A DNA stretch of 64,000 nt from Candidatus Omnitrophota bacterium (lineage in GTDB: Bacteria; Omnitrophota; Gorgyraeia; Zapsychrales; JAKLDJ01): contig JAKLDJ010000001.1 of assembly GCA_022703585.1 (NCBI GenBank), positions 182,891 through 246,890 on the forward strand. The letters are read 5' to 3'. The notes beneath the pieces were generated by a model. It was not told the origin of the DNA, did not search any database, and was given only the letters and a program-made list of their open reading frames with translations. The position numbers and the translations under genes are program-made. This document shows positions 601-30,700 of the stretch, in pieces; position 1 is the first letter of the stretch; each line of letters opens with the position of its first letter.

Positions 601-775
601 GCCAGGTCCGGATATAACCGACAGCAAGACCAGCGCCAAAATCAAAACAGGACGTCTCGCCCGAGAGATGTGCCGCGCTTCGCCGACGGCGCGCGAAGAA
701 AGAGGATTATTGTCCGTCCGGATCATCCCCAAAATGGGCCCGGACCCGATGAGGCCTAAAAGACTAAAGAGGGCC
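1..775. repeat. Direct repeat copy A of an intragenic segmental duplication (partner 10363-11137, about 98-99% nucleotide identity)
   Basis: Positions 1-775 align base for base with 10363-11137 with only a few mismatches (e.g. tactgg vs tgctgg, ataacc vs atgacc). Identity ends at 775/11137. The copy may extend beyond the window start. Confidence 0.9.
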
Positions 776-3700: not shown

Positions 3701-6700
3701 GCAATAAGCAAGGCATGGGCTGCTTGATATAGCGAGGTGTCCTCAAGCAAAAAGACCCAGGTTTTCCCGTCGCGGGGGATACTGGCCGCGCGGATAATCA
3801 ATTCAAAGATATCCCGGTTAAGTTCTGCGAAAGAAATCTTTCCGTCATCGAAGAAAACCGGATCATCGGTTTCCGGAGGATTATACGTAAAGCGCATATT
3901 GCCTTTTCTTAAAGCCGCCGCACATTGCGTGCTCATACCAGGCAACTGCTTGCGTTCTTTCTCGCTATCGCATTGATCAATCACGCCTCGGGCGAAGGAA
4001 TCAAAGCGTACTGCCATTTCCTGTGGAGTTAAGACCCGCAGTTTACCGCTGGAGTCTCTGACAAAAAGCGAAGCCATAGGCTCAAGAAGATACATTTGCG
4101 CTGCCCGGGAAAGATCCAGCGCCGCATCCTCGGCCTTTTCGTCCTCCAGAGGGGCAGAGAGTAACGGTGTCTCCACGTGCGCTAATTGCGGCACTTTCTC
4201 ATCCGGATTACTTAACAATCCCGGGACATAAGCCATGTCCAGGTCAGGGTGGTCTACGGACTTTCCAAAATACTTTGAGATTGAACCCGATAAACTTTCT
4301 TCAGGCGAAGTAATACTTTTAATCAGGTTTTCAAAATATTCCTTGACCCGGTCTTTTAACCAACCTCTTTCGTTCTCTTTTACTGTTTCATCATGACGGT
4401 CAGCCATGGCCTCAGCCAACGCCTGAAGGTTCCGGGTGAACTCAACATGTTCCTGGTCCAACGGATAGAGGCTGAAGTCATGGATGCCATTATTAAAATG
4501 ATGGGTTTGACTATTGAGCGGTACCCCTTCATCGCTTAAAACCCAAGCGGCGTTTTGATAAAAGACGATCAGGAAGCTTTTTTTGTGGATCTTGATTTCT
4601 CCGACCCAGGCGTCATCGTTGATTCTGAATATACTGGAATCATAAATGTCCACATAATGCGTTAAGGCCAACGGTAATTGATTTCGGCTAATAAATTGCC
4701 GGACTGCTTTTTGTTCGCGCCGGTTAAATTTCTTGCTTTCATCACTATTCGATTCATAAAAATCATTCTTGATAAGATATCCGCTCAATCGTTCAATAAC
4801 CTCTACGACAAGCCTGGCCTTTTGAACGGTAGGCATAACGTCGATACCACCCAGGAAGGTGAGGGTTTCGTAGGTGCGAGCCAAGCGTACGGCTTCAAGA
4901 TAAAACGGCCTTAAATATTGGGGAATTGATTTTAAAAGGCCAATTGCGGACGGCTTCCCTAAACGCAGCAGGGCAAAATCAATCAGGATGTGTTCGGCAA
5001 CATAAACCTGCGACGAAACGCGCTTGGGCACATCTTTGACGGCACCGTCTTCACCGAGAAGCCCGAGTTTTTCTGCGAGCGCGGAAATCCTCTTGTCCGA
5101 ACCTTTGGCAGTCTTCAATTCCCGTGCCAATACGCGCAGCTTCCGGCGGTCAATGAGCTCTCGGATTTCTTTGCGGATTTGATTTTCCGCTTTGCCTTCG
5201 AGAATGTCCTTTGTCCCGTCGGAAACCAGCCCTAAGACAGACAGGCCCGCCAACACAGCAGTGGCGGGCAGGCCCGTCAGCCCCGTTAGAAATGTTGAGG
5301 GCAATAAGAAAGTTGTTAAAGTTTCTAACGGGGCCAGGGGCAACGAGAAAAACGCGAGGCAGCCTAATGTTTCGATGCCTCGAATCATTTCATCTTGCTT
5401 TAATTTTCCGCTGATAACAATAGCAAGTTGCTCGTATACAACTGAGAAAAAAAGTTGAGAAGTTACATAGTCGGACACTCTTATGCTGCCCAACCCGCAG
5501 TTTTCAATGCGTAAGACGTGCGTGCCGCTTCTTACGAAATAGAGCTGTTCATTGTACCTGCCTCTTGAAAGGGGTTTGATAGCGGTCCATAAGTCCTCAC
5601 TAAATCCTGCAATATTCGCAGTTTCATCGTAATGGATAACGCCAACAAGCTTTCCTGCAGAGTAGTCAAAAACAAGAAGATGGCATCCCGGAGGTTTGTT
5701 AAAAGCTTCCGAAAGAGGGGGACACTTTTCCTTATCCCAGCGGATGCTGATTTTGACTGATTCGGGATCTAGTATCGTCCGATGCAGATAAAGCATGACC
5801 GGATTATTAGTCCCTTTGTAATACACTATTCCTCTGGAAAGCGCGTGCTGACGCAGCCAACCGAGAATAGCCTTGGCAATTCCTTCTATTTGAAAACAGG
5901 ATTGTATGTGCAGGTGTTCCAATAGCAATTGAAAGCCACCAAGATAAAAGACTAAACCCGACGTGCGGCTTTGGCCCGGATCATCGATTCTCAGGTTATC
6001 CAGCCATATTTCATATTCCATGCCATTCGAAAAAGGGTCGCTTGAGCGGACGATTATAATGGTATTGCCTCGATGGGGTATCAATACCTTGACAGGATTT
6101 TCATTTTCATCGCGCCATTCTTGGGTTCCGTCGAGATACGCCACCCTGCGCGTCCACTCTTTCCCTTGGGCCGTATCGTCATCCGCGCCTTCTCGCACCA
6201 TTCCCGCGATAAAGACGGCGGGCCCCGCCAGAAACAGCGGGGCGGGCAGGCCCGCCAAGGGCAAGAAGAGCGACACAAAACACCCTAAGCGCCCTTCATC
6301 CTGCGCGGTCAGTTGTTGATAGATCTCCTGCGCGCGGCGCTGCTGGTCTTCGGATAACCACGCTACAGCGAGCCCATAACTTTTTGCTTCGAGATTCGGG
6401 TCAGGCGAAACAGTATAACGGGAACTGACTTTATTTGTCTTCTCATCAAAATCAACATCGGTTTTCCATAAATCAAACCCGAGTTTTTGCGCGGCAAGCT
6501 TAAGCCCGTCGCGGATATGGGTATTAAAGATAACCGTGACGTTTTGCTGGCGCAGGTAATGCAATACCGCCAGCTGAATCGCCGCCAATTCGAAATTATC
6601 GGTGCCGTGCAGCTCATCTAAAATAAGCAGGCTATCCGGCGAGACACTATTAATCATATCCGCATACTGTTTGAGAATATTAAGAAAATAACTTTCGCCG

Positions 6701-9700
6701 GTTTCGGTCACATTGCGGCCGCCAAAAAACGCCCCGATTCCGCCGAATCTGCTCATGGTTAAATCACCCGAGACATAAAAACCATGCCGGGCAAAGACGG
6801 CATTGATAAAACTATTAAGCATCAAGACACTCTTGCCGCTGGAATTGGATCCGGTTAAGATAAAAACCGGTTTTTGGGGGTTAACCGCAAACGTCTGCGC
6901 CACACCTCCCTGCAAAAACGGCCCACGCCCCCAGAAAAATGAATGGTTCGGGAAGAAGGGCACGCTATTTTCTAATCTAAATGTTCGATACTCATCAACG
7001 AGAGTCGGCGGCTTGATAGAATTCAAAATGACAGAACGGGCAATACCGGTAAATTCATCCACCCCCCTAGCAATCATTTCAAAATCTTTCCCAAGATGCT
7101 GGCAGGCCTCGCCCCATTCAGCTTCCAATCTTTCCCGTTCTTTCTTGCTTAAACCGGCAGGATCAACGGTATATTTTTGGCGCATCTCATCCAGCGCGGA
7201 TTCCTTTTTCTTCAATAATAGTTTTGTTTTGTCAACCAGGGGCTCCTGCGGCAAGGTCTCAAGGTGCTCGATAAGCAATTTCATTTTTTCTGCAAGCGCG
7301 TTGATCTTTTTCTCATTTTCTTTAACATCATATCGCGCCCAGCGAAATTCCCGGTCGATACATTTATTGACCGACGAAAGAAGTTCGGTAATTTTTTTAA
7401 GGTACTCTGCGCCCTGGGAAACAAAAAGCGCAGTCAGGCGCAGGCGGACATCAACCGCATCCTCCTGCGCGGTATCGTCCTCTTTTTCTGTCTGCGGCGC
7501 GGTTGTATCCCTGCCGCCTAAAAGGGACCCAAGAATTTCTTCTTTATCCGTCGGTTCTTCAATATTATCTGCATCGACATCCCCGGTAAATATGCCGAGC
7601 AACCGTTCCGGGGTCTTACGGAACGCGAAATGTTCCCCAGGGTAGAGATTAGCAAAAACCACTTCAAACATTGAAAAAGCCGCGGATTTCTTATCCAGCT
7701 TCAAAGAGGATGATTTGGAATCGCCCATTTTCTTAATCGGAATCTCCTCAATATCGCCCCCCTCGATAATGCAGCGATAATACGCCCGCGCCAAAGTAAT
7801 CATCTCCTTAGGAAACCCGGCCTGGCGCATTAATTCAATCGCGTAGCTGTGTTTCGCGATGCCGGGCACCAGTCCAAAATCAGGAACAATCCGGCCCTTG
7901 TTCTCTTTAACCGTATGCATAAAGGGCTGTTGGCCGGTGCGCGCCTGTAACAACTCGTACATTTTCTTCAAGTGGCTGGTAACAATAACCGTGGCGCCGC
8001 TACGGATCAGATCTTCGATAAGGACCGTGGCAATCGCCACCAATTCGTGATAATCCGTACCCGTCGGGACTTCATCAAGGATAATCAAATCTCCGGGCCC
8101 GGCCTTTTTAATCAAGTCGGTTAATTTTTCAATCAACATCCCGAAATAACCGTATCCTTTGTGCAGCTGTTCCGGCTCGGGAAAGACCGTGTAGATATTA
8201 CGAAAGACACCGATGGCCGGCGCGTCATCGGGAACCGGCAGGCCAACCTGGGTATAAAGCGCGGCACGGCCAAGGCCGCGGGCAGTCGTGGTTTTTCCAC
8301 CCATGTTGGGGCCGCTCAATAAAAGCGCATTATGCCCGCCGCCTAAAGAAATCTCGACGGGGTGAATGCCTTTTAAATCATCCTGTTGTTCTCTTTCGCG
8401 TTTCCGTCGCGTCTTCGCATCAAAGGCCTCAAGGAATCCATCGAAGATGTCACGGTCCGGTTTTGGCTGGAAGGCACGGGCAATGAGAACCGGGTTGCGG
8501 TAACGTGCCAATTGTATAGTGCCGGTAGGCTGCATGATATCGGCAAAACGGTAATTATTCTGAACGGCAAAAAGGGCAACACGCGCGTAATAATCAATTT
8601 CTGCCAAATAATTCTGCATCATCCCTGCCGGGAATTGGCGCAGGAACGAATGCTTGTCGCCGCTATTTTTCGCGCGCCGCCTTGAGGCGTAGGCCTCGTC
8701 TCGTTCCCGGCGTTGACGCCCCGCAGCTTGCCGAACAAAAGAGTCCAGACGTCTTAGGCCGCCTAAGAAGCCATCTGCATCATCATCGTCTTCTACATCC
8801 AAATCGTCATCGTCTGAAGAATCTGAAATTTCTTCCTCATCTTCATCCGGCTCGCTGTCTTTTTTGGCGGCTTTTTGTTGACGCTTCTCAAACAAACCCG
8901 GATTTTGAGGATACGGGTCCCCTTCTATGTGAGATTCGATGTTAATCACCCATAAATCGGATAATTTCTCCACCAGCGAAGAAAATTCTTTTATAACATC
9001 ATCAAAGAGCCCCTGCTCTTGAAGCTGTTGCTGTATTTCCTCCTCCATACTCGGCTTATCATTGTCCGAGTCATCGTCTTCATACAGCGCGCTATAAAGG
9101 TTACGCCCCTTATCGCGCCGATGAGAAGCATTCTTTTCCCGGTGCTTTTTAAGAATTTCCGGAGCGACAAAAACATTCGCATCGACGCGCCAATCTCCCA
9201 CAGCATTTAAGAATTTCCTTCGTTCCAAAAATGGCTTTAGCTCCGGCCGGCGTAACGTGACCTGAATCTTTTCTTTCCATCGTGCCATAACCGGAGAATC
9301 ACTCTCGGGCAATGCCTGTTCGACAGCCTCCAGGCACAAAATAACTCGTCCCAGCGCAATCAAAGCAGGCGCCACGTCGGGATAAGCCTCATCGAATTCC
9401 AGGGGTCCGTCGTTCCATTGCCCCTTGGATTCACGGTCCAAAATACTACTCCTCTCTTTCTTTTTGGGCACAAAGAACGGATAATGGTAGCGTCGTAACG
9501 TGCGCAGCTCTGAAAGAAAGTCTTCTTTTTCTTTATGATAGCGCGCGATTAGTTTTGTAAGCTGTTCTAGCGGATTGTCTTCGCTTGTTCCCTGAGCGGC
9601 AATCTCCATCAGGCTTTCGATGGCACGCCGGGCTATTAGAATATCCTTGTGCTGCCTCCAGGGGCGCAAGAGCCTTTGTTGCAAAATCCTTTGCACGTCT

Positions 9701-12700
9701 TCCGTCGCGTTGGCAAAAAACGGAATAACGTTTTCCAAAAGCCATTCTCCCTCGCTCTTAATTTCTAAATTTACCAAGTCATGCCCTTCAAGTTTCATCT
9801 TTCCGGGCCAAAAATCAGGGTCACCGTAGACGGGAATCCTAAATCTATTTGGTTCTTGGGCATCGTTTCCTGCGTCCTTCACCATCCCCATCACCGGCAG
9901 AAACATTAAGAACGGCCCGGCCCCGACGAGGCCTAAAAGATTAAAGAGGGCCGAGGCGGACAGGAACGCGAGCGGCGATAGGAACATAAGGGCCCGAAGC
10001 GTTTCAACTTCTTTCCAGTCATCGTCCTCCTTCGCCTCATCCCTCACCTCCTCCCAAGCCTCCCCCCGGCCTGGAAGAATGCTGCCTCTATAGTCAACAT
10101 CTTTTGCCGTCGGAAAGATTCTTTCAGGTTGGGCAGCGCCTGACCAACAAGAATCAAAAGGGTTGAAAAGCGACCACCATGTTATAGGCAGCTCTTGGCC
10201 TTTACTGAAACGCTTCCAGTCATCTGCCACAACAATAAAGATTAAAGGAGTTTTATCGGATTGCACTGAATCCGGTTGAAAGCCTATCCAGTCGCCTATC
10301 ATCATGCCAAACCAAGGCTCCCACCAAAGGTGTTTGACGTTGTTTCGCCGCTTGAGAACCTCCAGATCTTGGGGCGTGATCTTATCCATCGGTGTCGGAA
10401 CGATAGGAATTGCTGGCATATTTTGGGCGGCATTCGGATCTCCAGGGTTAGGGCGCATAACCATCTGCCTGTCCTTTGATGCCATCAGAATGACCGTGCC
10501 CTCGGGAATAATCAGTTCATCCAGCCATGGCGGAACAATAACACGGCCCTTACCGAAGTTACATACGGCCAATAAGAGCCTCCCGGGATCAAAGGGCCTG
10601 TAATATTCTTCCAAAAATTCTCCGACAGGCCGCCCGTTTTTCTTAAGACAAAGCATGCTATCCTGGGAAGCATAACCGTGCAGTTCCAGAATATTTATAT
10701 CTTGAAAAACATGATATTGGCCGCGAGTCGCGCTGACCAGGTAAACCATGCCTTTCGAGTAATGTTCCAGTTTCGGATAATAGAAAGACGGAGCATCATC
10801 GGGGACAATGCCAAGCACCCTGAGCGTTTCTGCAAGCTCCGTGTACATTCTAAAGACAGCGCCAAGGTCATTCTTGACTTCGGAGTAAATATACTGAAGA
10901 TAATCCGGCTTATAAATACTGGTAGAATCTGATGCGTCTGCTTCGGCGGTTTGAGGTATCGTGCCAGGTCCGGATATGACCGACAGCAAGACCAGCGCCA
11001 AAATCAAAACAGGACGTCTCGCCCGAGAGATGTGCCGCGTTTCGCCGACGGCGCGTGAAGAAAGAGGATTATTGTCCGTCCGGATCATCCCCAAAATGGG
11101 CCCGGCCCCGACGAGGCCTAAAAGATTAAAGAGGGCCGAGGCAGGCAGAAGCCCCGGAATAAAGCAGGCCAAACCTTTAGGCTCTCCGGTATCAGCAGCC
11201 GTCAAATCACGCTCCCACCACCATCGGCCGCGTTCAAAAACAAAGCGATATCCGGCATCTCTATATAAATCATCAAGCCGTGCAATACTTGTCGCCGGTA
11301 GATAAAGGGTCGTCGCTGAAAAAAGGCTGCTGCCCGCCGGCGCCAAAATTCGCCCCAGCTTTTGCTTTCGCGCATAAGCACGTACGGCCTGTTCAAGAAT
11401 ACGCTCAACCGAACCAAGTTTTTCGCGAACCAACCGCGGCGTACGGCGACAATTGATATAAAGCCTGGCCTGCAGAGTATTGATTTTTAGCCCGGCCTTC
11501 TTGCCTTCAATCTCAAAATCGACAAAGCCTAAAGGAAGTGAGTCTTTAAGCAAGGTTTCACGATATTCCCTGGGGACATCGCTGCCATTAACCCTAAGCT
11601 GTTCGTTAACAATAGGCCTTAACAGCGCCAGCATTTCTTCGTCGTGCAATAATACATTAAGCCTCTTTCCCGGCATTCCCATGCCCAGGCTCAAACTCAA
11701 TGCGCCTTCGTTTGACAAGGTATCCGGCCTAAAACCGGGAAGCGCCACACGCTCATTAATCTTTGCCCGAGATAAATCGAAGATTTGATAGTTGACCGGC
11801 TGTTTCGAAGGAAGGATAGCGAGCGCTCGCTCAAGAATCTTTATCCCTTGAGCTTGCGGGCTTCCGCTTAGATCTGCGCGCCTGATTGTGTCTGCGATAC
11901 AATTAATGTCTGTCGCCCGATTAAATCGACGGCCGTCAAAGCAAGCATATCCGGATTGAAGTGTCTTGGTTGTATAATGACGTAACCCCGCTAAATTTAT
12001 ATTTTTAGAATGATTTTTTCCGGTCACGGCACAATAAACAGTCCACAAAAACGCGATATTACTGCGGCTGGGCACCCTGAGGCTGTTTTTCCTGGCGTAT
12101 ATAAAATAATTTAATAATAGCCCGATGAAATGATTAGGGAATTCATCCAGGATTACACCAAATCCTTGAGCCCCTTCAAAATAATAGAATTCATTTTCGT
12201 AGTGCAAGTGCAATAAATCGGCAATATTAATTAACGGCAAACCTGCCCTTTGCGCGCGCTTGATAAACGGCCAACGCTTCGGGTTAACCAGATGCCGGCC
12301 CATTAAGGACAGCGCCTTTTGCCAGTCCGCGTCAAAATTGTCCCGGATAAACGCGGCCACCTTGTCCGGGTCATCCGTATCCGGCGGCAGCGCATTTTTT
12401 ATCGCCTCAAGCGCACTATCTTCGGTTCTCGGCGCTATACCGGCCATCAACACGGGTAGGAATATCAAGCCGGGAATAAAACAACCTAACCCTTGCGGCT
12501 TTTGGTAATCAGCGGCGGTAATAGTAGCACCCGGAGATCTCTTACGTGCAATCCATGCGACTTCGGTCATCATCCGGCTATACCCGGCCAAGGTCGGGGA
12601 GGGAATAAAACCATACCGGTGTGCCAACGACTGGTCGCGCGCAATCACATGCTTGTGTTCCTCGCTCAAATAGCCGCCCGCGATCAGCGCAACAATTTCA

Positions 12701-15700
12701 TCTCCCGTTACCCTTTCAATGCCGCGAATCAAAGCAATGCTGTTCGAATTATCGACGGTATACCCTACCCAGCGGCCAATGTTGGAAACAAGGACTGCCT
12801 TTTTATGCAATTTCGGCAGCCGCTCAAAAAGAGGCCGAAGATGTTCGGCATCTTTGAGATCACCCCGGATAAGATGGTACTGCCGGCTCGGCCGGTAACC
12901 GTTCAATAAAAGATGTTGTTGTGCCGCGGCTAAGGCTTCGTCGTCTTTTTCTATCAGAACAACCGATGACGCCCCCAATTTCAGCGCCACCAATGACAGC
13001 ATGCCGTCCCCGGCGCCGCAATCATAAATGCGCCTGCCGTCCATGGCGACATTCATCGCGGCTGCCATCGAGGCCATGGTGAAATACATCAGAGCCTTAC
13101 TGTCGACAATCGTATCGTGCAGATTTTTCAGGATAATAACATTGCGGTTAAGGGCTGTCCGCAGGCGGAGACTCAATTCCCCGTAGGCCTCGCTATCAAG
13201 GATAAATAAATGCCCGGCACGGATAAAACAGGAACCGAAATAGTCCGGCCGAAGAATTGGGCAAACAGGTGTGGGCATCCACGCCTCATGTACCTGCGGC
13301 TTTCCGGAAATCCTCTCCCAGCGTTCATTGGCGTATATTTTCTTGCCGTAGACAAGGCCTGATTCTTCCTCGAGCTCCCGGAATCTTTGACCCGACGGCT
13401 CAAGGCGTAATTCTTTAACGATGCGGCGGCTCAGGCGCCGGCACAATTCTTCATCAATTCCGACGGCAGGTGCCGAGAGAGGATTATTGTCCGTGCGGAC
13501 CATCCCCACCAGCGGCAGGAAAGGCAATCCCGGGAGCGTCAGAGGCAGCATAAAACAGCCGAGAGTTTCACGCGTTATTTGCGAAACGTCCTCGAATCCG
13601 TTGGTTGGGCTCTCTAAGGATGTCGCGTATTTTGGAACTACCTCTCGTCGCAAAGATTTTTCTCTGCTCTCTATTCCACGACGAACTGTTGACATCGTCT
13701 TTTCTAAATCTTGGAGGTTTAATTCGCGGCTTTTTCTTATTTCAGAAAGCCTCCTTAAAGCTTCCCCAATAGAATCTTCCAGATAAGACACCGACTCTCC
13801 CCAGGTGGAGAATGGTTTAGAAAGTCCTTTCATTAGAGTCCTAAATATATAATCTTCATTTGCCCTGGCACCCTGAATAACTCGAGACAATATATAAGCC
13901 AGATCCTGGGGATCAATTCTTATTGTTTCCCTGGACCCACCTCTTAAAAATGAAGAATGTGGATGAGAAATGGCTAAAGCTACTTTCAGCCACCAAGGAT
14001 ATCTTTCCCAGTGATAGCTGATCTCCCAAGATTTTTCTGCCTTGGAATATAGGATCTCCTCTTCTTTTTCTGGGGCGATGATTTCCCGAATAAAGTCGGG
14101 TAATCGATCCCAGATATCATCATCCATAAGAGATTGTTTAGTTGGTTTTTTGCCTGGCGTCGCGAGTTTTCTGGAAACTTTTTCAAATGTCTTATGCTCT
14201 TTCAAAGTAATAAGTGTCCCTGGTTTTTTCTTTTGGCCTAACAAGATAAGATCGTTTTTTTCATCTAACATCAGCCCAAGGATATGTTGTATCTGATCAT
14301 AATCATAACCTGCCTGAATCATCAAATTGACGGCAGAGTTCAAAGAGTATGTTCCCCACTGGGGACCCTTTTTTCTTTTTCGAGTTTTCTCTCTTTTCAA
14401 AGGTTTACGCCCCAGTGAACCTAATTTGGCATCTGTGAATTGAGACTTGGATGGTTTTCTTTTCCTTTCATATCCCCCATTGATGGTTTTTATGCCTGGG
14501 GCTGTCTTTCTTTTGTGACGGCTGAGATGATTTTGGCTGGCCTGGCGCGATTGAGGAACTCTCAAGGTATCCAATCGCTTGTCGAGCTCAAGCTTCCTGA
14601 AACGTCTCTGTTTTTCAGCGTATCGAGTACGATAGTCTTCCCAATCTTCAGGACTCACCATCCCCACCATAAAGACAGCGGGTAGGCCCAAGAACGGTAG
14701 GCCCGCCAGCCCCGCTAGAAATGTTGAGGGCAATAAGAAAGTTGTTAAAATTTCTAACAGGGGCAGGGGCAGAATAAAACAGCTGAGCGATTGAGAGGAC
14801 GGATGAAAATCAATAAGCAGAGACCCGAATCTATTCACTTCAAAACTTATTCCGCCAACGCCCTCGGGGACGAGGAATCTCCTGATTAAATCTGCATTAA
14901 AATCTGTTGTTTCCAGAGACGACATGGTTTCATTAATCATCCTACGGTTGTTTACGGCTTCGATATTGCCCAGCCTGGAAGATGTGCGAGCCATCAGGTT
15001 GCAAAAATTGATATTTCGAAATCCGGGAACTCTGAATATTCTGGATATCATCATGGATAAATACAGCAATTTGATTTGCGCCTCCGGGGCCAGTTCCGAA
15101 AGTGCTGTCTCTGGGTACCAGAAGCTGAAACCATTTCTTTCTCTTAACAGAAAGTCATAAAACAGGTCTCGTCCCGCCGGGTCACCGGCAAATACTTTCT
15201 CGACAGCAGGTAACATCCCTTCTTCTTTATCCGGATTGAGCCTGTTGAGCCTTTCTATGGCCAAATTCTGGCGTCCATGAGCAGCCCGGAGACGTTTGTC
15301 AAATATCCCCTCCAGAACAACCTCTACCGCCACGACACCTGTCACGGCCTTGCTGAGGAGAAGCGCTTCTTGAACCACCTCCGCCATCTCCAAGTATATT
15401 TGCTTGAAATAATCAAACAGCTCCTGGGTAAATAAACCTTCAGAAACTGTCGCCGTATCAATCACATTGATAAGAAAATAGAGTTTTAGAATATTGACAT
15501 TCTTCTTCCCGAGCGCGAACGCCATCACCGGGATTAAAACCTCTCTGGTGACCTCCCCCCGCTTCAACTGCCCGATCCAGCCATGTTCCCGGACCATGAC
15601 TAAAGCGACCTCACACTCTTGTTTGGCATAGCCGATTTTTGTAAATGTCTTTTCTCTTCTTAAAATCTCTGCCCCAGACTTCGGGTGGTTGGTAAAATCC

Positions 15701-18700: not shown

Positions 18701-21700
18701 TCATTAAACCCCATATGGCCTCCCAACAGGATCGTACGGCCCCTGGCGTCTTTTAAAAATTCAAATGTTGCAGAGTCCCTGACCGGAAAAGCACCGCCGA
18801 TGCCAATTATCGCCAAATCGGCTTTGCCGCGCCCGGCTTGGGCAATGGCTGCTTGCAGCTGCTGCTCGTAGGCGTCGGCGACCGTTTGCGCGTCACTATA
18901 TTCAAAAACCGGGGGCAGATAGCGGTTGCTCTGTTTGGGGGCCCGCGACGGGTCAATCCGGTCAAGCCGTCGATAAAATACCTCATCCATATAAAACGCG
19001 TAGCTTAAAGGATGCCCCCGCTCAAGGCCGAGGTATTCATCGAGGTTGAAAAAGACAACGCGGGAAAAATCGATCGTGCGGTCTTCTTTGTACCGGCGCA
19101 CCAAGGCGGCCCACATCGGTAAGGGTGTCGCTCCCGTCGGAACGATAATGACCGCATCGGGAATCATTTTAACCAACCTGATCACGCGCTCGGCTGCCGC
19201 TTCGCCCAGCAAGGCACTGTTGGCAAAAATATTAATTGAGGTAGGACTATACAGCGGCCGGCGTATATCCTCCGTCATCCCCGTCATAAAGACAACAGGC
19301 AGGCCCGCCGAAGACAAAAACACCACGCCCGGCAGAAAACAACCCAGGCTGTCATCTATATCATTCCGCGGCGCGGACGCGCGCGCCTTTTGGGCGAGCC
19401 GGTGTTTCACTTCACCAAAAATTTCCCCTTCATTCCACTGAAAAGTAAATTGATTAAACAGCATGTCGATGGAAAGCTCATCAGCCCCCGTGCGCATAAT
19501 AGCCGCTATCATCTGCTCAACCGAAATCTTCTGGGCGATACCCTCGCGCACAATCTTGCGAATATGCTTTGCCGTCTCCCAATCGTTATGGAAAAGTGCT
19601 ATCGCCGCTATAATCCTCCGGTGCGCCCGCCGGTATTTTGGCAGCCGAAACACCCGCGCAATCGCACTGAATCGCCCATAATATTTCAGGCAATAGGCAA
19701 GCCACACATCGCCGGGGACAAGATGTTCTTCGTCAAAATCGACTCTGCCATAAATATCCCGCTGGCGTCTTACATGATGAATATTCGCGCATGCGACAAT
19801 GGCTTCTACAATTCCAATATATGTCCCACCCTGTGAATTTCCATGTACGATTTTGCGCACTGATGAGGCAATGACCCGTTTGGCATAGGCAATATCATCC
19901 AGGGTTAAATACTGCGAGTGTTGAGAATCTTCCAATGGCGAAATCACGAGGTTCCATCGGTCGTCATCAATCGTAGTGGTTGTCTGCGCGTCAATATCCT
20001 CGGGGAAATATTCCAGAGCCGGAATTTCTTTCCACCAATGACCAAATACATCCTCATCGGGAATATCATCCCAGCGCTCCAGGCTCACGCGCACGCCTAT
20101 AGCGGTATAAAACCGTACAATGATGTCGTATAAGTCAGCCCATTTTGTAAGAGGATACGCCTCGCGAGGAAACTGCTGCCGGTATTCTCGTAAGAGATAC
20201 TCGATAAATTTCCTCTCCAGCGCCGCGTAATCAATAACACCCTGCTCGTTTCGAAGCACCGAACCTGAAACCTCAAAGCATGTAATACCATAGTGATGAA
20301 AAACATAAAAAGAACCGTTAAGATGCGAAGCCGTAGCAACGTCATTAAAGCCGGGAAGAATGACAGGCCAAAGCCTGTCCGTCGCCAGAGGGTGATGATG
20401 ACTATGGATATCAGAACCTTCAGCATCTTTGGCCTCAACCCAAACCGTCATCTGCGTTTCTTCCGGTGTCCTCCCCCGGACTAGACGCCAACGCCCGCTC
20501 TCGGAAGAACGATATAGCGCAACCTCAAAACCCAGGCCGGTTAAAGCCTTGAGCATCCCTTTGGTCGGCTTGGCAATATCAAAAATATCACCCGGCTGAG
20601 CATCGACGATCGTCTGTATATCCACATCCCCCGTCATTCCCGTCACAAATAGGGCGCCCAGGCCCGCCAGCCCCGTTAGAAATGTTGAGGGCAATAAGAA
20701 AGTTGTTAAGATTTCTACCGGGGCCAACGCCAGCATTAAAAGGCTTTCGAGACCGAAGCCGGGTAACAGAGCTCTAATAGCCTCCGGGGCTGAACCCCCA
20801 TTTTCCCTGTCCGTCTCTATCTTCTGGCTTAACGCCTTCTTGCACGGATTCGAAATCCATGTATTGGCCTCCGCTGCCCCCTGGCGAATAGCCCTGACAG
20901 TTTTTTCTGAATAAGATGGCACATTAAAATGTAATAACGCCCGTGCGGCCATGCAACGCACGTACTCGTTGGGGTCGTTTAAAAGAAGATCCGCGAGACA
21001 CTCTTCAACTTCTCGCGATTGAATGCCCAATTTCCAAAGAAAGGCTACAAAATTCGACCGATACTGGGTAAACCCAAATTGATCAATCAGCGTATATCCT
21101 GACGCCCTCATTAAAACCTCGCACCCCTCCTGTATTTCTAAATCTGCGATTCTCTGGCCAGCGTCAAGCGCCGCAGTCAAAATGTCGCGATTTGCTTCGT
21201 CATTCTTTTCGACCAAAGTAAGTCCTTCATGTATCAAAAATAGTTTTTCGACCGCCTTAATTAAAGTAACGGATTCAGAAAATTGTCCTGAGTCAGAGCT
21301 TACCATCTCATCGGGGCTTGAAGCCGGCGTTTCGCTAGCCGGGCCGGGCGAAGAATATTTCGCCTTTAAATAGCTCACAGCCATGGCACAGGCTAGGCTA
21401 ATATCACTGATAGGCGTGTCTTCGGCGGGATTATGGCTGATGCCGTTTATGCTGCGGACAAAAAGCATAACAGCCCTGACGCCTTTTTTGGCAAAATATG
21501 CGGTATCGTGACTGGCACCACTGTGAAGATTAAGGAAGGGAATATTTTTTTCGCGGGCGACTCGCCGGAAATCATCCTGCAGATCTTGGTCCAATTCAAC
21601 CGGTTTTCCCGGCGGCCCATGCTCGGTAATCGGATACAAAAGCGTTTCTTTTAAGAGCTGCACTAATGTATCGCGAACTCCTATGTTGTACCCACGAATA

Positions 21701-24700
21701 TCAATGCTCACTTCCAACTGACGGCCATCACGGAAGATTTTTCCCACGGTTGCGACCGGGCGGTTTTGAGAATCTTCCTGCGCCTCGGCGGCCTGTCGCG
21801 CTCTTTCTTCAACCGCGCGGACAATCTCCAGGGCCTGCAGGTAGGAATCAGAGGCCATATCAAAAATTCCCTGCGAAGGCTTGCTGACTTTCAGAATTGT
21901 GGTGGTATTTCTTCGCGCCGCGACAGAGCGCAATACCTCTTCGGCCCGGACGCGTTCCTGCGGCATAATATACAGAGCCATAGTCACTTTACCGGGAATA
22001 GTATTCATCGAGCCGTTCTCGATTTCGATACCGGCGACGAGATCCCTTCTTTTAAGGATATCTCTCAGCATGACCGCCAACTCCGTGGCAGTGGCCAAGG
22101 CATCTTTTCGACCATCCATCGGCGTCGCCCCGGAATGATCCTGCTGGCCCTGGATTTCAATAAGCTGCAGATCCTTATCATTAACGCGGCGCTCATCCGT
22201 GATGTCGGCCACATATTTAAAGCGATGGGCGGCGGCAATACCCTTGACGATACCGACGGGGCAGCCGGCCTTTTCCAATACCGGGCCCTGCTCGGGATGT
22301 ATTTCCAAAACGAATTCGATATTTCTTAAGTTGTCTCTATCCTGCTCCGCTGCCAGCGGATCAAGCCCGCGGCCTCGCATGGCCTCAAGTATTTCCTGCT
22401 TGGTGCGTATAGGCCTTCCTTGAGCGTCAGATTCTTTAAGCGCGGACCACTGGAATGCGCCGGTAGCAAAACCGCTTCCGATCATGGCAATATCAAAACG
22501 GGTCGATTCTTCGCAGCGATAGGCGACAACCTCGAGAGGATTGGTTAATCGCACGCCGGATTCTTTTAGCTGTCTGACGATTTCAAGCCCGGAAACAACC
22601 CCGGTTATCCCGTCAAATTTCCCTGCGCCTTTAACGCTGTCCAAATGGCTGACGATACGAATAACCTTGGCGCCGGGATTAAGCCCTTCAAGCCGTCCAT
22701 AGAGATTGCCGGCCGCGTCCGTCCGGACGGTTAGGCCGAGAGAGAGCATTTGTTTTCTTACATAGTCGTGGGATTCATCTTCCAGGGAAGAATACCCCAG
22801 CCGTGTTCTTCCTTTTTCCGGGTTGTCACGGGAGGCGCCGATGGCTCCGATGGCTTCAATGTGCCGGGCAATTTCCTCCTGCGCTTCTTTCTCGCCTTTG
22901 ATCATTCCTAAAGGCCCGGCCTCGCTGAGGCCTGCGAAGGCCGAGGCGGGCAGGAACATCAGCGGGCCAAAGAACATAAAGGCTCTTAGCTTATCGGAAT
23001 CATCCGCGTCAAACGGATTATCAACTCCCAAGCGCTTGGAAAACCTTCTGATAAAATCATCAAAGTCATGCGGTTCGGCGCCCAGCATGTCCCGTCCTAT
23101 GGACCGGCCTTCTATATTTTCTTTTAAATCCGCGAAGACACCGACAAGAGCGCAGATAACGCTGAATTCTTGCGGAGTGTATTCCATCTCCGCAATAGTA
23201 AACCTAATCGAACCTTCAAGGTATGCTAATACCCGGCCGTTATGGACAGGAATTTCTGGCTTAGACTGCGATTTGTCGGCAAGGTCTTTAAGAATATGGC
23301 GATGGTCGTACGCGTCAATTGCCATGACAATGCTTGTATCGGGCATTTCATAGGCAACCCATTTTAAGGCAACTATATTGCCGAATCCCTGCTGCTCGAG
23401 TTCATATCCTGAAGTTATCCCATGGGGTATGCGCTCGGCATCATATATCCTGACCTCCGGCAATCTCCTTCCTGCGTCGTGGCTCCGGGGAAATCTGCGC
23501 AGGCTTCCCTGCTGCTCAAGCGCCTGCAATGCCTTAAGCACTGCCTCGGAGCCCATAGAATCAAACAATTCCTTGGCAAATATCTGCCCGGCGTGGCTGC
23601 CCTCATCAAACCCCACACAGAAACTTCCCGCGCCGATAAGCATTTCTCTATCGGCATGCGAACCCTCGTCACCAAACACCGCAATCTCATCAATCGAAAG
23701 GTTATGTTTATCGGCAAAATCAAAAAGCGCAAGCGCCTTGTGCCGCGCTGTCTCATAGCCATCAATCTGCTCAACCAGGGATGCGTCATCCACAAACCGT
23801 TCCAAGTATTTTTTATACCCTCCTGTCCCGCCGCCGGTAATAAGCGCGACCGGATATCCGCAAGCCAGCAGTTTTCCGATAAAACGCGCGAGCTTCTCTT
23901 TTGTTTCTTCTGTCTTTCCATCAAATGAGATGTCCAGCGTCCCGCCGATGTCAAAGGCAAAGCCCCTGACCCCGCGCCATTTAAAGATATTCCATTTTTG
24001 CCGGTTACTTAATCCCTCAAACCGTTTGGCATCCCTGGCTAAAACAGTTTCTATGACATCGCGTATCATGGATTCTGCCTGGCGGTCTCTTTCTTGCGAA
24101 AGCTGTTGTAAACGTACCATCGCCTGCGCGTCAATTCTCCCGCCGGGTTGAATAATATTCAGCAGATACTGCGAAAATGCCTCATTAACCCATTTCTTTA
24201 TTTGCTGATAGGAAATATAATGGTTCCGGGCGATCTCAATCGCGTTAACCGGTTTACCGTCACGAACAATGGCGTGAGTTTCCTCCTCGAGATCCCTGAT
24301 TCGGATATACGAGCCGTCGTTAAACCGTGAAATAAGCCTTTGCAGAACGTGAATTGCAAATGAAGGAACAGCAGGAATAAAACGCAGGGCAAGATAGCTT
24401 GTTAAGTGCAGCGGCGCAAACGGGGCATAGAGCCCTAAATACCACAGCCGGCCAATAATCTGGCCCGAAAGGTAGCATTCCCGCAAGAATTCGGGATAGA
24501 AAACATTCAATGAACCGCGGCGCGAAGTTAATATTTCATTGCTCCACTTAAAAATAAGAATTTGACGGATCATCAAGTACTTCCGCAGCGTCGGGTTAGC
24601 ATTAGCGGGAAGCGCGATTTTTAAATCAAAATAGTCGTTTTCATCAACAATAAAGCTTGTTTTTATATCGTCAACGGGATTAAATCCTTTGGCATAATGC

Positions 24701-27700
24701 ATGATCGCCCAATACAAAACCCAATCCAGTTTCTTTGCGGCTTCGTCCTCTAAATCCTTAAGCATCGCCTCTGCTGTTTTTTGTTCCTTATTTGGATTTG
24801 GCCTCCTCAGCAGAACAAGCGCCCCCAACGCATTTAAAATAACGCCTCCCGCCAAAATAAACATACCTATTTCAAGCGGCGACAGGGCGCGCAACGTATC
24901 TTCTTGATCCGTAGACACTTTATGATTTTCAGGAATCATCAGCTGGCGCATCATTTCACGCATTTGCGCATCTTCTTCTTCCCTTTCGTAGTTTCTCTTC
25001 GGGCGCGCGTTAATCCAGGACAGGTCGCGGCGCATATCCGCAGTAATCCGCATTTTTTCTTTGCCTATTCTCTCCCAGACATTATCCGCTATTTGATACC
25101 GCTTCTGCCCCGTAGGCGGCAGGCACTCATATTTCTTGCGGGAATCCCTCATCCTTCGCCACTCTTTTTCAAAGCCACGGCCGGCAAAACGCTCGTGTAA
25201 ATACCGAGCCATGGCCTCACGGGCCCAGAGGTGAGCGCCAGGGGAAAACGTATCTTGATTGTGCCCGGATAACTCAATAAAATTCGATAAGCCTCCCGTT
25301 CCCTTATAGCCGTACAATCCTGCCTCGGCCAGGTCCCAATAAAGGACATCACTTCGCTCATCAACCTTAAGCTTGCGCAGATATTTCTCGGCCAGGCCAA
25401 AAGCAATGCCCTGATACAACCCAAATAACATCCAGCGGATATTATTGCGGACGCGCGCGCTACGCGTGGTTTTAAGCAGTTTAAAGAGAAGGCCCGATTC
25501 ATATTCGAATTTTGGATAGGATAACAGCGTAAATCCGTGCACGCTAACGGTTTTGCGCGCACGCAACATTTTTTCCATCACATTTTGGTAGGCAAAATTC
25601 ATAATGCGCGCCTGGCTTTGCCGCTGCATCGGCAAAAACATCGTAAAGACAGAACCGGCCTTTCCGTCTGATGCCACCTTAATTCTGCTATGCATGCAAT
25701 ACATAATATGCGAAATGAAATCCAACGTAAGCGTACTGCCAGAAACCCTTTCGTTCCTGACCGCATGGCGGACCATAGAAAATAATCCTTGTTGATTTTC
25801 TTTTGGAATACCCTTGCCTGTATCTTTGACCTTGACGATAGCGCCGTCAATCAACCTCGCGTACCCAAACAGATTTGCTGTTCCTCTTCTCACGACAATG
25901 CGCACAAGGCCCTTCTCAGTATGTTTAACGGCATTAGCAATAAGTGTACGGACGGTGGCGCGCAGCAACTGCTCTTCACAGTCATCAACAACTAATCTCC
26001 TTTGGTCACTGTCAATCTCAAAATCAAGGCCCTTGGCCTCGGCAGCCGCACGCAGCTTCTCGGCCTCATCCTTGACGATTGGCACAATGTCCAGCGTCCT
26101 AAAATCAATACCGATTTCCATCGTATTAATATACGTATTGGCTTCGTTAGCAATGATTTCGTACCTGCTGAGGCTTTTTAGCCATCGCACGATTTGCTCC
26201 TGACGCTCCTTTTCCTCCGTGCCAAGATAGTCAAGAAGGCTCCCTATCTGCCGTGCTATACCGGCAACATCAAAGATGTCTATGCCACCGTTATGGCGCA
26301 AAACCAACATAAAAGTATCAAGGCTTTTATACCCATGTTGACGCATATAACGCCGGACAACACCCCAGGGGGCACTGCCGTCGGCCACCATCTCTCCCAA
26401 CATGCAACGCAGATGCTTCCTATCTCTGGCAGTAACCCGACCAAAACGTTGTCGAAACTCTTTTGACCGGCCGATATAAATATTAATAAGCCCGTCATAA
26501 TTTCTACGCCAAAACTTGTGATCCGTACTCCCCACAACCATGGATGCTATGCCTAATTGGTACAGATGTGCCCGAGCCTCGACTCGTTTATCCGATGTGA
26601 CGTTAGCCCTGTCATTCTTTTCATTCCTTGTAAACTCCGGGCCGATTTCGCGGCCCCGTACCACAAATTCTTTAAGCTGCCACTCACTTAACCCGCCGCT
26701 ATACCAGAATTGATAATTCCAATTGACCGAGAAGCTGACAACAACCTTGTCCACTTTAAATTCTCGCTTGATACGCTCGATCACCGGATCGACGAGCTTT
26801 CTGGGCGTCGGCTCGCTAAACCCAAGAATAGCGGCAAGCCCCGCGACCTTAAAGTGTGCCTCTTCAATGACCGTGCATGTCTGCCGGATAGCCGGCCATG
26901 CCTTTTCTTTAAATGCCGGCAAACCTTCATTTTTCAATACTTCGGAGCCATACGCGCACGCCTCACGAAACGGGCGCTGGGCGTCGCGGAATTCAACCAT
27001 GCCTTCATAAAGGATCCGACGTGTTTCCTGCAAATTAAGCCTGCGCGGCGCTCGATCGGAGGAATCATCGTCACGGTCAACAGCGTCTTTGATCACCCCC
27101 AAAAGAAACAGCGAGAAAACAGGAAAAACAAAACACCCCAGCGTATCTTCGCGGCCGGCGCCGATTTCACGCATGACCTGTTCATAATACGCAGTGACTT
27201 TCTGGGCTTGAATGTCAGTTTCTAGGATACGATCAAGCATGGTTAAAGCAGCCAATTCAAACCCATGGTCCCGGTCATGAAATAACCGGCGGTATCGTTC
27301 TTCATCACGTTCTCTTAGGCTATCAAACGCTCGTCCAAAGACCTTACCCTGAGCAATGAGTGTTTGATGCCGCTCGACTGCTTTTTGCCCTTGCTGGCGG
27401 ACAGTTTCCATGAATATTTGAAGCGGGCGACCATGCCCTCGGGAGACAAACCATAAAAACCACAGTTTCACGTCAAGCATGGACATAAATCGGTTCTGCA
27501 GCGATGCATCGTCATTGTAATCTTCATGCTGGTTCAGCCGGATTTTATCGAGGAGGATTTCGATTTTCCGTGGATCAGCCGGGGCGTGCAGATATCCAAG
27601 AAAGAATCGGGCATACTCTTCGAATTGCTTTTGTTCCCCTTCCGGTGTGCGGACAATATAGACGTCCGCGAATGCCTTCATCCATGTTTTTACTTTCTTT

Positions 27701-30700
27701 TCTGCGTCAGAAATTCTCCGCAAAATCGCAAAATAAACGGCATTATGCAGACCATGCAGAATAAACGGCACAACAAAAACCCCTGTCTTCCAGTAGGCAT
27801 AGCCCCAGAGAATCCCCATCCCGATCCTGAAGATGCTGAACCGGTTATCGCTGTGAATCAAGGCAAACGCCACGCTGCTAACCAAAAGAGCGATGGATGT
27901 CGATACAGGCATACCCGCGACGATTGAGATCAGACCGCAATAATTCAAAAGCGCCTGGAGACCCATAAATAAGCCGGCCCGGAATATTAATTCTTCGACC
28001 AGCGGTATCTCAATCGCGATGGTGGTATAGGTTTTTAAAGGTTCCCCATAAATAATAGGGTGCCGGCTATCACGTCTTGAGGAATCTTTTAAATACCGCT
28101 TGGCAGACAGAACAAAGAAGAAGAATACCGGAGCACACAACAGGGCAACCATTTTAAGAGTGTAGAGCAGCGCCGGGATTATTTCCCGCCGGTCATGATA
28201 GGTCAACGCCAGGGCGATCGCCGCCGGGATAATATTGGCGACCAAAATTCCTGCCCAGCGCCAAAGCTTGTCGTCTTTCTCCTTTTGCCCATTAGTCTCT
28301 TCCTGCACCATCCCCACCAGCCCCGTTAGAAATGTTGAGGGCAATAAGAAAGTTGTTAAAATTTCTAACGGGGCCAGCGGCACAAACAAAAGCGGCCACA
28401 GAGCGAAGGGCGTAAGACAGCCGAGATTACCTTCTCGTGGCGACGCGTCGTCGCGGTATTTCACCTTTTCGATAACGATCATCATATTGCTGTCGGGAAG
28501 TGCGACCTCGCGTCCTTCTGAATCAAGGAGCCTGGCTTTGCCTTTTAAGTTGTCAATATACCCTTGCTGCAAATACGATTCTTCGTCTTTAGCTAACGGC
28601 AGAGATCTAACCACCATGCCTTCTTCTTGGGCAATCGCGGTGATCAAATCAATGTAACCCTGACGGGTCAAAACACCGTATTGCTCGCGCACTTCATAGG
28701 GTAAGCTGCTTGGGTCAAATTCGGGACGATAGGCCCAAGTCAATGTAAAGAGAAACTCCATCGCGTCTTTCCGTAACATGCGAATACGCCATATCTCCTG
28801 AGCGGTATCTTCAGAAACTATTTCATAGGCATCCGATAAATTCCGGCCTTGGAAATTATTCACAAAGAAATCAAAGACTTCCTTATTTTGCCTGCCTGTC
28901 AACTCAAGGATTTGCATTGCCTCGCCATCAGGCGGAATGGCGCCGTCGCGGATAAGAAGCCTGCCGCCAACGCCTAAAACCTGCAAGGCTGCCCTAAAAA
29001 GATCTCTGATCGATTCGATATTAAAACGCCGGCCGTCTTTTTCGGTATAGCTGTAGACTTCATGCAAGAGCGCGCAAAGAACAACCGTGTGGGCCATTGT
29101 TTCTCCGGCAGAGGCTAAGGCCGCTTTTAAATCGTTGGCGTTGGCTTTGATAACTCTCGCGGAGAGATTCTTTGCTTTTATTTTATGATCAAGTGCCTGC
29201 ACAGCCTCCTCGGAAACTTCAACGGCCAAGATCCTCTCAATGCCGTTGACCTGCTTAAATATTTCGGCGATCTCAAGCGTTGTGCCTTCACCGGGCCCGA
29301 TATCCACCCAGACGGGCCCACGGCCGTGCCTAAGAAGTCTGGCCTTGTCGCTTCGGGCAGCGGCCATTCCTTTTAAATAAAGCGCCTCATTGCTGACGCG
29401 GTCAAAGTTATCTTTACGGATGCCGTAGGCATCAAGAAGCATCTTAAGAACCTCGTGGAAGCGCAATGAATTGCTCACCTCATAGATATGAAGAAGTTCC
29501 AGCAAGTGGTTTGCTTCTTCGCTAAACCTGAAATCAAACGATATCGACTCCACGCCGGGGATGCCCAGATCGGCCGTTCCCAAAACAGGCTTTTCGCCGT
29601 CATGATGATCCGTCTTGTCAAATACTGAGACCGTCTCAGAATTAACGATCAGTTCTTCAAGGTCAACCCTGTCAAGCAATGCCTCCAGAATGCGAACCTT
29701 ATACGGGTCAAACTGATGCCGACCGCAAGAAAGCTGGCGCATAAGATCAAAGAAGCTGATATGAAACGGCCTTGTCATATCAATACCTTTTCTTTGGGCA
29801 AAGGCAAACGCCAAGGCAAGCACTTTAATTTGAGGCTCTGCCCTTAAATCGAATGTCGCACTTTCAACGTACCAGCCCTGGAAGTGCCTTAAGTCTTCGA
29901 TGAGAATCCGAATCGCCTCCGACGAAAGATTGTCAATCACGCGCTCTAATTCTTCTTTCGGCTCGCCTAACTCTCTTCTTTCCTGACGGAAGCGTCCCAG
30001 CCGGTCTTTTAGATACGCCCGCCGGGATTCTTCGGTTGCAAAGTTATCCCAACGCGCACGATAAACATCATCCCAGGAAACAGGGAATGTTTCGCCTTCG
30101 GGCGTAATAACACGGCAGAAATTATTAAAGAATCCGCGCATCTCCTCATTAAGCCGCGAGGTAAATAATCCTTCGCGAATACTCGATACATCCAAAACAT
30201 TTAACAGGTAAACAATATCGCCGACTCTTCGTGCAGCCAAGAGGGCATCATCCTGAGCGCCAACAGCCTCGGCAAGCTCTCCAAAATGCTCACGGATCCA
30301 ACCCGTGAAGTCTTCAAAAACATCGTAGGAGACTTCCCCTCTGACCCACTGCCCGGCAAAACCTCGGGTTTCGATAACGCGATAGAAGAATTCATTTAAT
30401 ACCATTCGGTGCGGATACGCCCTTAAAAGTTCAATATTCTCAAAAAGGCCTCTGTGCCAGCTTAAGGATGCCATATTACGCAAAATGAGCGCCGCTGCCT
30501 TATTAGGCAGACGAAAATCAATGCCCTCAATCTGCGCCCACTCTCGAAGCAACTCCGGCAGCGCACTTTTAGCCACATCATGATAGAGAAAAGCAATGCG
30601 TATGTAGGAAAGGATATCAAGTTTCTCGAGGGTGGCCACCACGTCCGCAAGATACTCAAATTCTCTGTTGGAGATACCCGGCTCGTCCTGAAAGAGTTTT

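Follow-up and report, generated by a model that had tools for sequence, protein, structure and literature searches.

The question raised by this locus is why a single bacterial gene should hold four nearly identical copies of a short palindrome in surroundings that have otherwise diverged. The window, by which we mean the whole 64,000-nt stretch of the Candidatus Omnitrophota contig JAKLDJ010000001.1 analysed here, consists of one minus-strand open reading frame (ORF) of 21,333 codons with no stop, both ends of which run off the window; the other five reading frames contain 588-1439 stop codons each. A preliminary description of this DNA reported a 53-bp palindromic element present four times in this ORF, and proposed that it might be a recombination hotspot, an RNA hairpin causing pausing or frameshifting, or the outcome of very recent duplication. 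Here, we find that the copies probably arose by recent copy-paste of a 57-nt cassette. More tentatively, we read the element as a young mini-insert that was copied into a target specific to the hydrophobic modules that punctuate the gene.

Four copies of a 53-bp palindromic element

With up to three mismatches allowed, exactly four matches to the 53-mer were found in the window, and no copy differed from copy 4 at more than two positions; no occurrence was found in 100 dinucleotide shuffles used as a chance control. Neither more diverged, older copies (searched with sensitive nucleotide and peptide profiles) nor solo element ends were detected in the window. All four copies have the same orientation, lie in phase 0 of the giant ORF and are open in that frame, which bears out the near-identical, same-phase copies reported earlier. 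The encoded peptide is (P/L)(L/V)E(I/T)LTTFLLPSTFL(T/A)G, as previously given except that the first residue of copy 2 is L and not P. The spacings between neighbouring copies are 7650, 5961 and 9429 nt, all divisible by 3.

Copy 4 (28317-28373, minus strand; element 28321-28373 plus CTGG at 28317-28320) is identical to the consensus and encodes PLEILTTFLLPSTFLTG-L. Its 13-bp arms are perfect around a core of 27 nt, as the preliminary description stated, but they reach 14 bp when the flanking G/C is counted (28320-28333 and 28361-28374). Copy 3 (20667-20723, minus; element 20671-20723) has two differences from copy 4, an L-to-V change in the 5' arm and a synonymous ATT-to-ATC change beside the arm, and carries one internal stem mismatch (12/13 arm pairing). 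Copy 2 (14706-14762, minus; element 14710-14762, and not to 14763 as first reported, the boundaries of the other three copies being correct) also has two, P to L and T to A, both of which form G.U pairs in the sense RNA and weaken the DNA hairpin, so that 11/13 arm positions pair, or 13/13 with G.U in RNA. Copy 1 (5277-5333, minus; element 5281-5333) has a single difference, I to T at the loop-closing pair (12/13), and its trailing tetranucleotide is CTGA. Because CTGG is conserved on the sense strand after the element, the repeated cassette comprises 53 + 4 = 57 nt, or 19 codons. Each copy reads, on the sense strand, YTG(G/C), then CCCCGTTAGAAAT, 27 nt and ATTTCTAACGGGG, then CTG(G/A), and then (C/T)GGG; the consensus foot of the hairpin is CCCCGTTAG. 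On the antisense strand, the core also contains a sigma-70-like promoter match (9/12), TTGAGG-16 nt-TAAAAT with TG before it, at 28335-28362 and 14724-14751 on the plus strand. The match is intact in copy 2 by scan and in copy 4 (outside the scanned range) by identical sequence, and its -10 hexamer is broken in copies 1 and 3; such sites are not enriched over the scanned region as a whole.

The copies are far more alike at the nucleotide level than their peptide requires, as had been claimed. Wherever the amino acid is invariant (14 columns), all four copies use one and the same codon (P ~1e-22 under the gene's own codon usage). Conserved residues just outside the element show synonymous variation in four of five columns, and the conserved L-G-C-F and G-M-V residues of the surrounding modules also vary synonymously. 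Self-BLAST limited the homology around the element to ~40-50 amino acids (aa) at the protein level and ~65-80 nt at the DNA level, with non-homologous kilobases beyond; the diverged flanks of the preliminary description were therefore confirmed and segmental duplication was ruled out as the source of the copies, although its suggestion of very recent duplication probably holds in a modified form, as a recent copy-paste of the 57-nt cassette itself.

The copies diverge as a star around copy 4, which equals the consensus, the other three carrying 1, 2 and 2 private nucleotide changes. Of the five substitutions (T>C, C>T, A>G, T>G and T>C on the sense strand), four alter the amino acid, which is what the absence of selection would predict; the stems contain four, the remaining one lies beside a stem, and none is compensatory. 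Furthermore, codon adaptiveness of the element lies at the 0.7-2.2 percentile of 19-codon windows in the gene, it draws on rare codons such as CTA (4%) and TCA (10%), and it is 39% GC versus 50% for the gene.

The preliminary description also proposed looking for the element in related genomes, and none was found in the public collections or in two related loci. Degenerate back-translated peptide scans of one genome per species and of the JGI metagenomes returned only low-complexity chance matches, the pattern YTN adding noise since it admits Phe codons too. The four module peptides, used as a profile, matched nothing among 5.8 billion protein clusters; viral contigs contained no match to the exact core or to the arm-gap-arm pattern, and blastn against plasmids and phages gave nothing meaningful for the element. 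This is consistent with a lineage-specific, young element. Star-like divergence, nonsynonymous changes, atypical codons and the lack of instances in the collections searched all point to recent copy-paste and not to long-term purifying selection. We therefore consider it probable that the identity of the copies reflects their youth, whether they were spread by insertion or by conversion.

Possible insertion into hydrophobic modules or copying between them

Hydropathy and motif scans of the ORF revealed ~28 stereotyped hydrophobic segments, about one per 760 aa, that make up 4% of its length. These modules take the form x-L-(G/S/A)-C-(F/L)-x-x-P, a single hydrophobic stretch of 18-23 residues, G-M-(V/T/I), and then acidic or charged residues; examples are 13495-13566 (aa 16811), 6193-6291 (aa 19236), 19273-19350 (aa 14883) and 44560-44640 (aa 6456). 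No Pfam or NCBIfam model matched the six module regions scanned (the four that host an element and two that are element-less), and a CorA-like resemblance of the module peptides was discarded at E = 0.2. By inspection only, none of the lipobox, sortase, Hedgehog G|CF or prepilin-peptidase readings of the L-G-C-F module start fits well. Membrane anchoring and processing are candidate roles for the modules.

The same scans agree with the earlier placement of the four copies inside such modules. All four lie within the hydrophobic stretch, and their hosts are unusually long as a result (38-47 residues). The host of copy 4 (28306-28425, minus; aa 11858-11897) reads LGCLTPFALWPLLFVPLA-insert-VGMV and becomes ...FVPLVGMVQEE after excision; that of copy 2 (14650-14790, minus; aa 16403-16449) reads SLSCFILPLPL-insert-AGLPFLGLPAVFMVGMV and becomes CFILPLAGLPFLGLPAVFMVGMV. 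The host of copy 1 (5221-5370, minus; aa 19543-19592) reads TLGCLAFFSLPLA-insert-GLPATAVLAGLSVLGLV, and that of copy 3 (20641-20781, minus; aa 14406-14452) is without the Cys. Removal of 57 nt in silico gave back canonical modules of 19-27 aa in 4/4 copies.

In addition, two element-less modules, which are paralogous modules and not orthologous loci, resemble empty sites. At aa 19244 of the module at 6193-6291 (minus; aa 19236-19268), TTGCCCTTGG runs directly into CGGGCCTGCCCG, and 21 of 24 nt agree with the joined flanks of copy 1; at aa 16826 of the module at 13495-13566 (minus; aa 16811-16834), CTGCCGCTGG runs into TGGGGATGGT, with the same score (21/24) against the joined flanks of copy 4. 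In excision controls on this 24-nt junction, shifts of at least 6 nt scored 15-19, and shifts of +/-3 nt scored 18-21 owing to the flanking CTGG repeat. Host modules vary widely in length and sequence, and their flanks are no less similar to element-less modules than to each other; the 3' flank of copy 1, for instance, matches the neighbouring element-less module at 12/12 positions versus 9/12 for the flanks of copies 2 and 3. The flanks track module paralogy, not element genealogy. The octamer YTGGYGGG, the putative target, occurs 16 times on the sense strand (11 in modules, 12 in frame 0) and once on the antisense strand, and this distribution would alone explain the common frame, orientation and location of the copies.

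Based on the observed anatomy, excess codon identity, restored modules, star-like and neutral-looking divergence and target distribution, and on perfect 13-14-bp inverted repeats that coincide with the ends of the identity block, our preferred but tentative reading is that the element is a young, non-autonomous palindromic mini-insert, similar to a miniature inverted-repeat transposable element (MITE) and functionally similar to a Rickettsia palindromic element (RPE), that was copied to a target peculiar to the modules. The insertion event itself, its enzymology (no transposase was seen) and its consequence for recombination are what we infer. A 57-nt cassette, composed of 13-14-bp terminal inverted repeats, the 27-nt AT-rich core and the trailing CTGG, would have been copied into four pre-existing, diverged modules between YTGG and YGGG, a module-specific point that codes for L-(A/V)-G. 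Since the target is found almost exclusively in modules, on one strand and in frame 0, each copy would acquire the same orientation and phase, and the cassette would be translated passively as a 19-residue hydrophobic extension (PLEILTTFLLPSTFLTGL) of a tolerant segment. Nucleotide identity would then reflect recency and not long-term selection on the peptide or the structure. As a by-product, four in-frame direct repeats 6-23 kb apart would become substrates for homologous recombination, through which whole enzyme cassettes could be deleted or duplicated with the frame intact.

Several observations weigh against this reading. The restored junctions of copies 2 and 3 score at background, and a convincing empty-site paralogue was found for only two of the four copies. 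The flanking tetranucleotide pairs (sense strand) are CTGG/CTGG, TTGG/CTGG, CTGC/CTGG and CTGG/CTGA, so that a 'target-site duplication' is perfect in one copy only, and CTGG is common in this Leu/Ala/Gly-rich context, with 317 sense-strand occurrences. A length of 53 bp is very small for a MITE, and a transposase or a parent insertion sequence (IS) with the same ends would lie beyond the reach of a single-ORF window. The central 25 nt of the element are invariant (P ~0.04 under uniform mutation), which makes some constraint possible, and both stem changes of copy 2 leave G.U pairs in the mRNA, with the DNA hairpin weakened to -5.6 kcal/mol; neither the invariant centre nor the G.U-compatible changes are significant given five substitutions in total. 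Finally, the gene contains other identity islands that lack inverted repeats, and hence has a mechanism independent of terminal inverted repeats that possibly spread the cassette as well.

These islands support homology-guided short-patch gene conversion, or template switching during replication, which is a serious possibility and nearly as likely as insertion. The cassette would have arisen once in one module, perhaps by a palindrome-creating template switch, and would have been copied to others via 10-25 nt of flanking homology, with no transposase or target-site duplication and with ongoing conversion keeping the core identical. Three further island families (36-50 nt, 86-100% identical) are common to otherwise diverged modules: island family B at 9914-9963, 11099-11148 and 737-786, which codes for SALFNLLGLVGAGP; a second at 6203-6243 and 43706-43746, which codes for AGPAVFIAG; and a third at 683-731, 11045-11093 and 13460-13508, which codes for GM(I/V)RTDNNPLS(S/A)(R/P)AVG. 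In island B, a 44-nt stretch is 100% identical between 9914-9963 (module at aa 18000) and 11099-11148 (module at aa 17608), both on the minus strand, with unrelated sequence on both flanks and no clear inverted repeats.

Furthermore, an in-frame duplication of 777 bp connects 1-777 with 10363-11139 (99% identity, 8 differences, offset 10,362 = 3 x 3454), one end being cut by the window start. In the sense direction, it starts at the 3' end of the island B copy 11099-11148, inside a punctuation module, and in the twin of 10363-11148 at 1-786 (minus) only 40/44 positions agree within island B, past which the identity ceases. The junction pattern is the signature of a crossover within island B. 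Because the duplication begins in this island, short identical patches in modules serve as cassette-duplication junctions. The recombination-hotspot idea of the preliminary description thus receives only indirect support, from a different island in a like module, but no such junction was seen at the four copies themselves: self-BLAST found no homologous flanks between any pair of them, and no past exchange is visible at the element. As direct in-frame repeats of 53-57 bp, the four copies should be equally good recombination substrates. Whether selfish or not, identity patches of this kind supply in-frame homology for the duplication and deletion of cassettes.

Guidance by homology accounts directly for the common frame, orientation and module position of the copies, and fits the imperfect flanking tetranucleotide pairs in three of the four. 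The differences cluster at the edges of the element around the invariant 25 nt, as when the ends of conversion tracts erode. An over-representation of perfect inverted repeats in the ORF (6, of which 5 are independent, versus 0.33 +/- 0.62 in synonymous-codon shuffles) is compatible with template switching. However, the identity block stops exactly at the palindrome ends in all copies, where conversion would be expected to leave variable tract ends, and RecA-dependent conversion over a 57-nt heterology would have to rely on flanks whose homology is short and imperfect. Derived variants common to subsets of the copies are also absent, and conversion leaves the atypical codon usage unaccounted for.

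Hairpin, recombination-site and peptide-level explanations

We next consider a selected mRNA hairpin of 13-17 bp, which would slow or stall ribosomes, or mark an RNase site, during synthesis of the hydrophobic segment, and would thereby aid membrane insertion or punctuate expression. Folding confirmed the stem structure reported in the preliminary description: the sense-RNA 53-mers fold at -16.7, -12.4, -14.5 and -15.5 kcal/mol (z -5.7 to -2.8), and in context the stem is lengthened by CUGG/CUGG with G.U-containing pairs. Copy 4 is the fifth most stable among 4,261 overlapping 90-nt windows of the 64-kb mRNA, the cluster of rare codons coincides with the element, and the changes of copy 2 preserve pairing in RNA but weaken the hairpin in DNA. 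The enrichment of perfect hairpins in the ORF could also be counted in favour; this excess fits mRNA hairpins under selection, or alternatively a mutational process that generates palindromes. The other unique perfect inverted repeats lie at 63627-63714, 35543-35587, 33330-33358 and 1388-1470, with arms of 12-15 nt and loops of 3-60 nt; no 90-nt window of the mRNA is more stable than 63626-63715 (z -7.1), which falls in a hydrophobic segment.

Nevertheless, we regard a selected hairpin as unlikely. With four of five substitutions in the stems, none of them compensated, and an internal mismatch in copy 3, pairing shows no covariation, and the most conserved part is the loop, on which a simple hairpin would place no constraint. 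In 24 element-less modules, structure was only marginally raised (mean z -0.46) and no comparable hairpin was found, which argues that hairpins are not a general requirement of the modules; the element was also found in no other genome searched. The idea of pausing or frameshifting, raised in the preliminary description, found no support in the surrounding signals either. A role as stimulator of -1 frameshifting was rejected since the upstream codons differ in 4/4 copies and no in-frame slippery heptamer is present at 5-9 nt. An intrinsic terminator or attenuator was likewise rejected, the loop being 27 nt and the hairpin being followed by CUGG(C/U)GGG with no U-tract; a terminator scan of 5000-24999 gave no site at copies 1-3. 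Rfam 15 returned no family at gathering thresholds over the whole window, and only generic hairpin matches at E<=10.

A dedicated DNA recombination site, at which a site-specific recombinase would bind the palindrome for programmed excision or exchange of 6-9-kb enzyme cassettes in the manner of a shufflon or integron, is less probable still. The symmetric 13-14-bp arms around an asymmetric 27-bp core, the direct orientation and same phase throughout, the spacings in multiples of 3, the modules that bound evolutionarily independent cassettes, and the neighbouring island at a duplication junction would all suit such a site. However, the Pfam scan found no recombinase domain in the window, a 27-bp spacer is long compared with known core sites of tyrosine and serine recombinases, and no pair of copies retains the homologous flank that past exchange would leave. 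In addition, three of the four copies carry uncompensated arm mutations, and no match was found in the genomes, metagenomes or viral contigs searched. Even combined, a selected RNA hairpin and a dedicated recombination site remain improbable.

Other known classes of element were discarded on inspection of their hallmarks: an attC reading was rejected by sequence inspection, REP/REPIN by the wholly intragenic location of the copies and the lack of GTAG/CGTC at the hairpin foot, and the variable and template repeats of a diversity-generating retroelement by substitutions not confined to adenine positions. Finally, the view that these are paralogous modules from old duplications, with a conserved functional peptide and identical codons owing to codon bias, is effectively refuted: a nearly invariant peptide in a module that recurs would suit it, but identical codons have the probability of ~1e-22 given above, the codons used are rare, other conserved module residues vary synonymously, four of the five substitutions change the peptide, and 24 other modules lack it entirely.

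The giant gene and its comparison with known systems

A Pfam scan showed that the ORF is a mosaic of domains typical of separate housekeeping proteins. It contains two SecA_DEAD/PP-bind/P-loop sets, a sigma-70 r2-r4 set, ~17 tandem HTH-like repeats, PPDK_N, HAD, several methyltransferases, an Rce1-like CPBP protease, HATPase_c, peptidase M20, HEAT, Glucosamine_iso/PIG-L, adenosine deaminase and MutS domain V, and each Pfam domain falls between two modules. The HTH-like array (~52570-55540, minus; aa ~2820-3810) comprises ~17 tandem repeats of 56-62 aa (168-186 nt) with nucleotide identities of 60-79% and HTH_3/HTH_31-type matches. The Rce1-like CPBP intramembrane protease domain (27733-28023, minus; aa 11992-12088), with several transmembrane (TM) segments, lies directly after the host module of copy 4. 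Embedded as it is in the polyprotein, this predicted protease is a candidate for its processing.

Similarity to outside proteins ends at the modules. The block at aa 14912-15565 (window 17304-19262) is the sole block in common with P0271 and P0272, two proteins of 5.5-6.8 thousand aa that were the only related large proteins found. The modules at aa 14883-14909 and 15573-15595 delimit this block exactly, and it thus represents one inter-module unit; the matching regions lie at 17284-19200 of locus L010 and 13735-15732 of locus L011, with identities of 51% (P0271) and 45% (P0272). The genes for both proteins sit after dnaX-recR in syntenic loci, and a search of the two fetched loci found neither modules nor the element in their large genes. 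The giant ORF contains 150 cysteines versus one in P0271 and none in P0272. An HMMER search with aa 15650-16849 against 1.84 billion representatives matched stand-alone proteins with 40% identity, none of which spans a module. Stand-alone homologues of the adenosine-deaminase unit have an N-terminal signal anchor at the position that a module occupies in the giant ORF. The SecA-like segment, used as a query, retrieved only canonical SecA (~37% identity) and no giant relatives. Because homology stops at the modules and stand-alone homologues carry a signal anchor in the corresponding place, these results suggest that the ORF is a chain of TM-anchored cassettes, in which independent enzyme units are parted by a stereotyped hydrophobic module.

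This module architecture is possibly a more valuable lead than the element itself, and it bears on how bacteria assemble giant genes of tens of kilobases, how these stay free of stop codons and whether their products are processed. We think it unlikely, though worth stating, that the cassettes and their L-G-C-(F/L)...G-M-V modules constitute a system, built into giant genes, that serves the in-frame exchange of cassettes or their processing. If they did, the identical patches in TM-coding linkers would be crossover or recombinase sites, or sites of mRNA pausing or processing, and an ORF of >60 kb could gain, lose and reshuffle TM-anchored enzyme units with its reading frame never broken.

By its domain content, the ORF matches the 'multi-enzyme' class of Omnitrophota giant genes, for which the literature describes many TM helices and divergent SecA_DEAD domains (West-Roberts et al., 2023, bioRxiv 10.1101/2023.11.21.568195; Nielsen & Lui, 2026, bioRxiv 10.64898/2026.06.07.730766; Seymour et al., 2023, PMC10066038). 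Like these, it exceeds 21 thousand aa, has divergent SecA_DEAD, PPDK_N, HATPase_c, HEAT, HAD and methyltransferase domains, and carries about one TM-like segment per 760 aa. In contrast, term searches of the two giant-gene preprints returned no conserved L-G-C-F...G-M-V module and no intragenic palindromic repeats ('module' and 'cysteine' were not among the terms), no mention of palindromes or hairpins in the 2023 preprint (10.1101/2023.11.21.568195), and none of motifs or cleavage in the 2026 preprint (10.64898/2026.06.07.730766). The giant-gene papers describe cleavage points as unknown and TM predictions as ambiguous.

With concerted evolution or ectopic gene conversion among the repeated modules of large surface-protein genes, the locus shares short identity patches between paralogous modules with diverged surroundings, as well as duplication junctions that fall in such patches (island B). 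In contrast, the patch formed by the 53-bp element is delimited by a perfect palindrome, and relative to other modules it is a presence/absence insertion and not a homogenised stretch. MITEs and intragenic ERIC/BOX elements resemble the element in their terminal inverted repeats, small size, lack of transposase coding capacity, near-identical copies at dispersed positions and a possible direct repeat of 4 bp on either side. However, the element is smaller than typical MITEs, its putative target-site duplication is imperfect in 3/4 copies and no parent IS is known, and its strict orientation and frame bias call for copying guided by homology or for a target defined by its sequence.

Palindromic inserts that are translated in frame are well established, as RPEs and intragenic ERIC/BOX exemplify (PMC10969869), and RPEs form several families of ~100-150 bp in many unrelated Rickettsia genes (Ogata et al., 2000, via PMC10969869). 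As in RPEs, a short palindromic repeat lies in frame in a coding gene and is translated as a tolerated extra peptide, and several near-identical copies occupy otherwise unrelated contexts. In contrast to RPEs, the element measures 53-57 bp, shows no similarity in the collections searched, is seen only in one giant ORF, and always occupies a single target sequence within one kind of hydrophobic module. Considering its length, the lack of sequence similarity and its Omnitrophota-type host gene, the element is not a member of any RPE family. If it is merely a selfish insert, the rare RPE-type phenomenon of translated palindromic DNA would extend to a new lineage and to sequence that codes for membrane segments.

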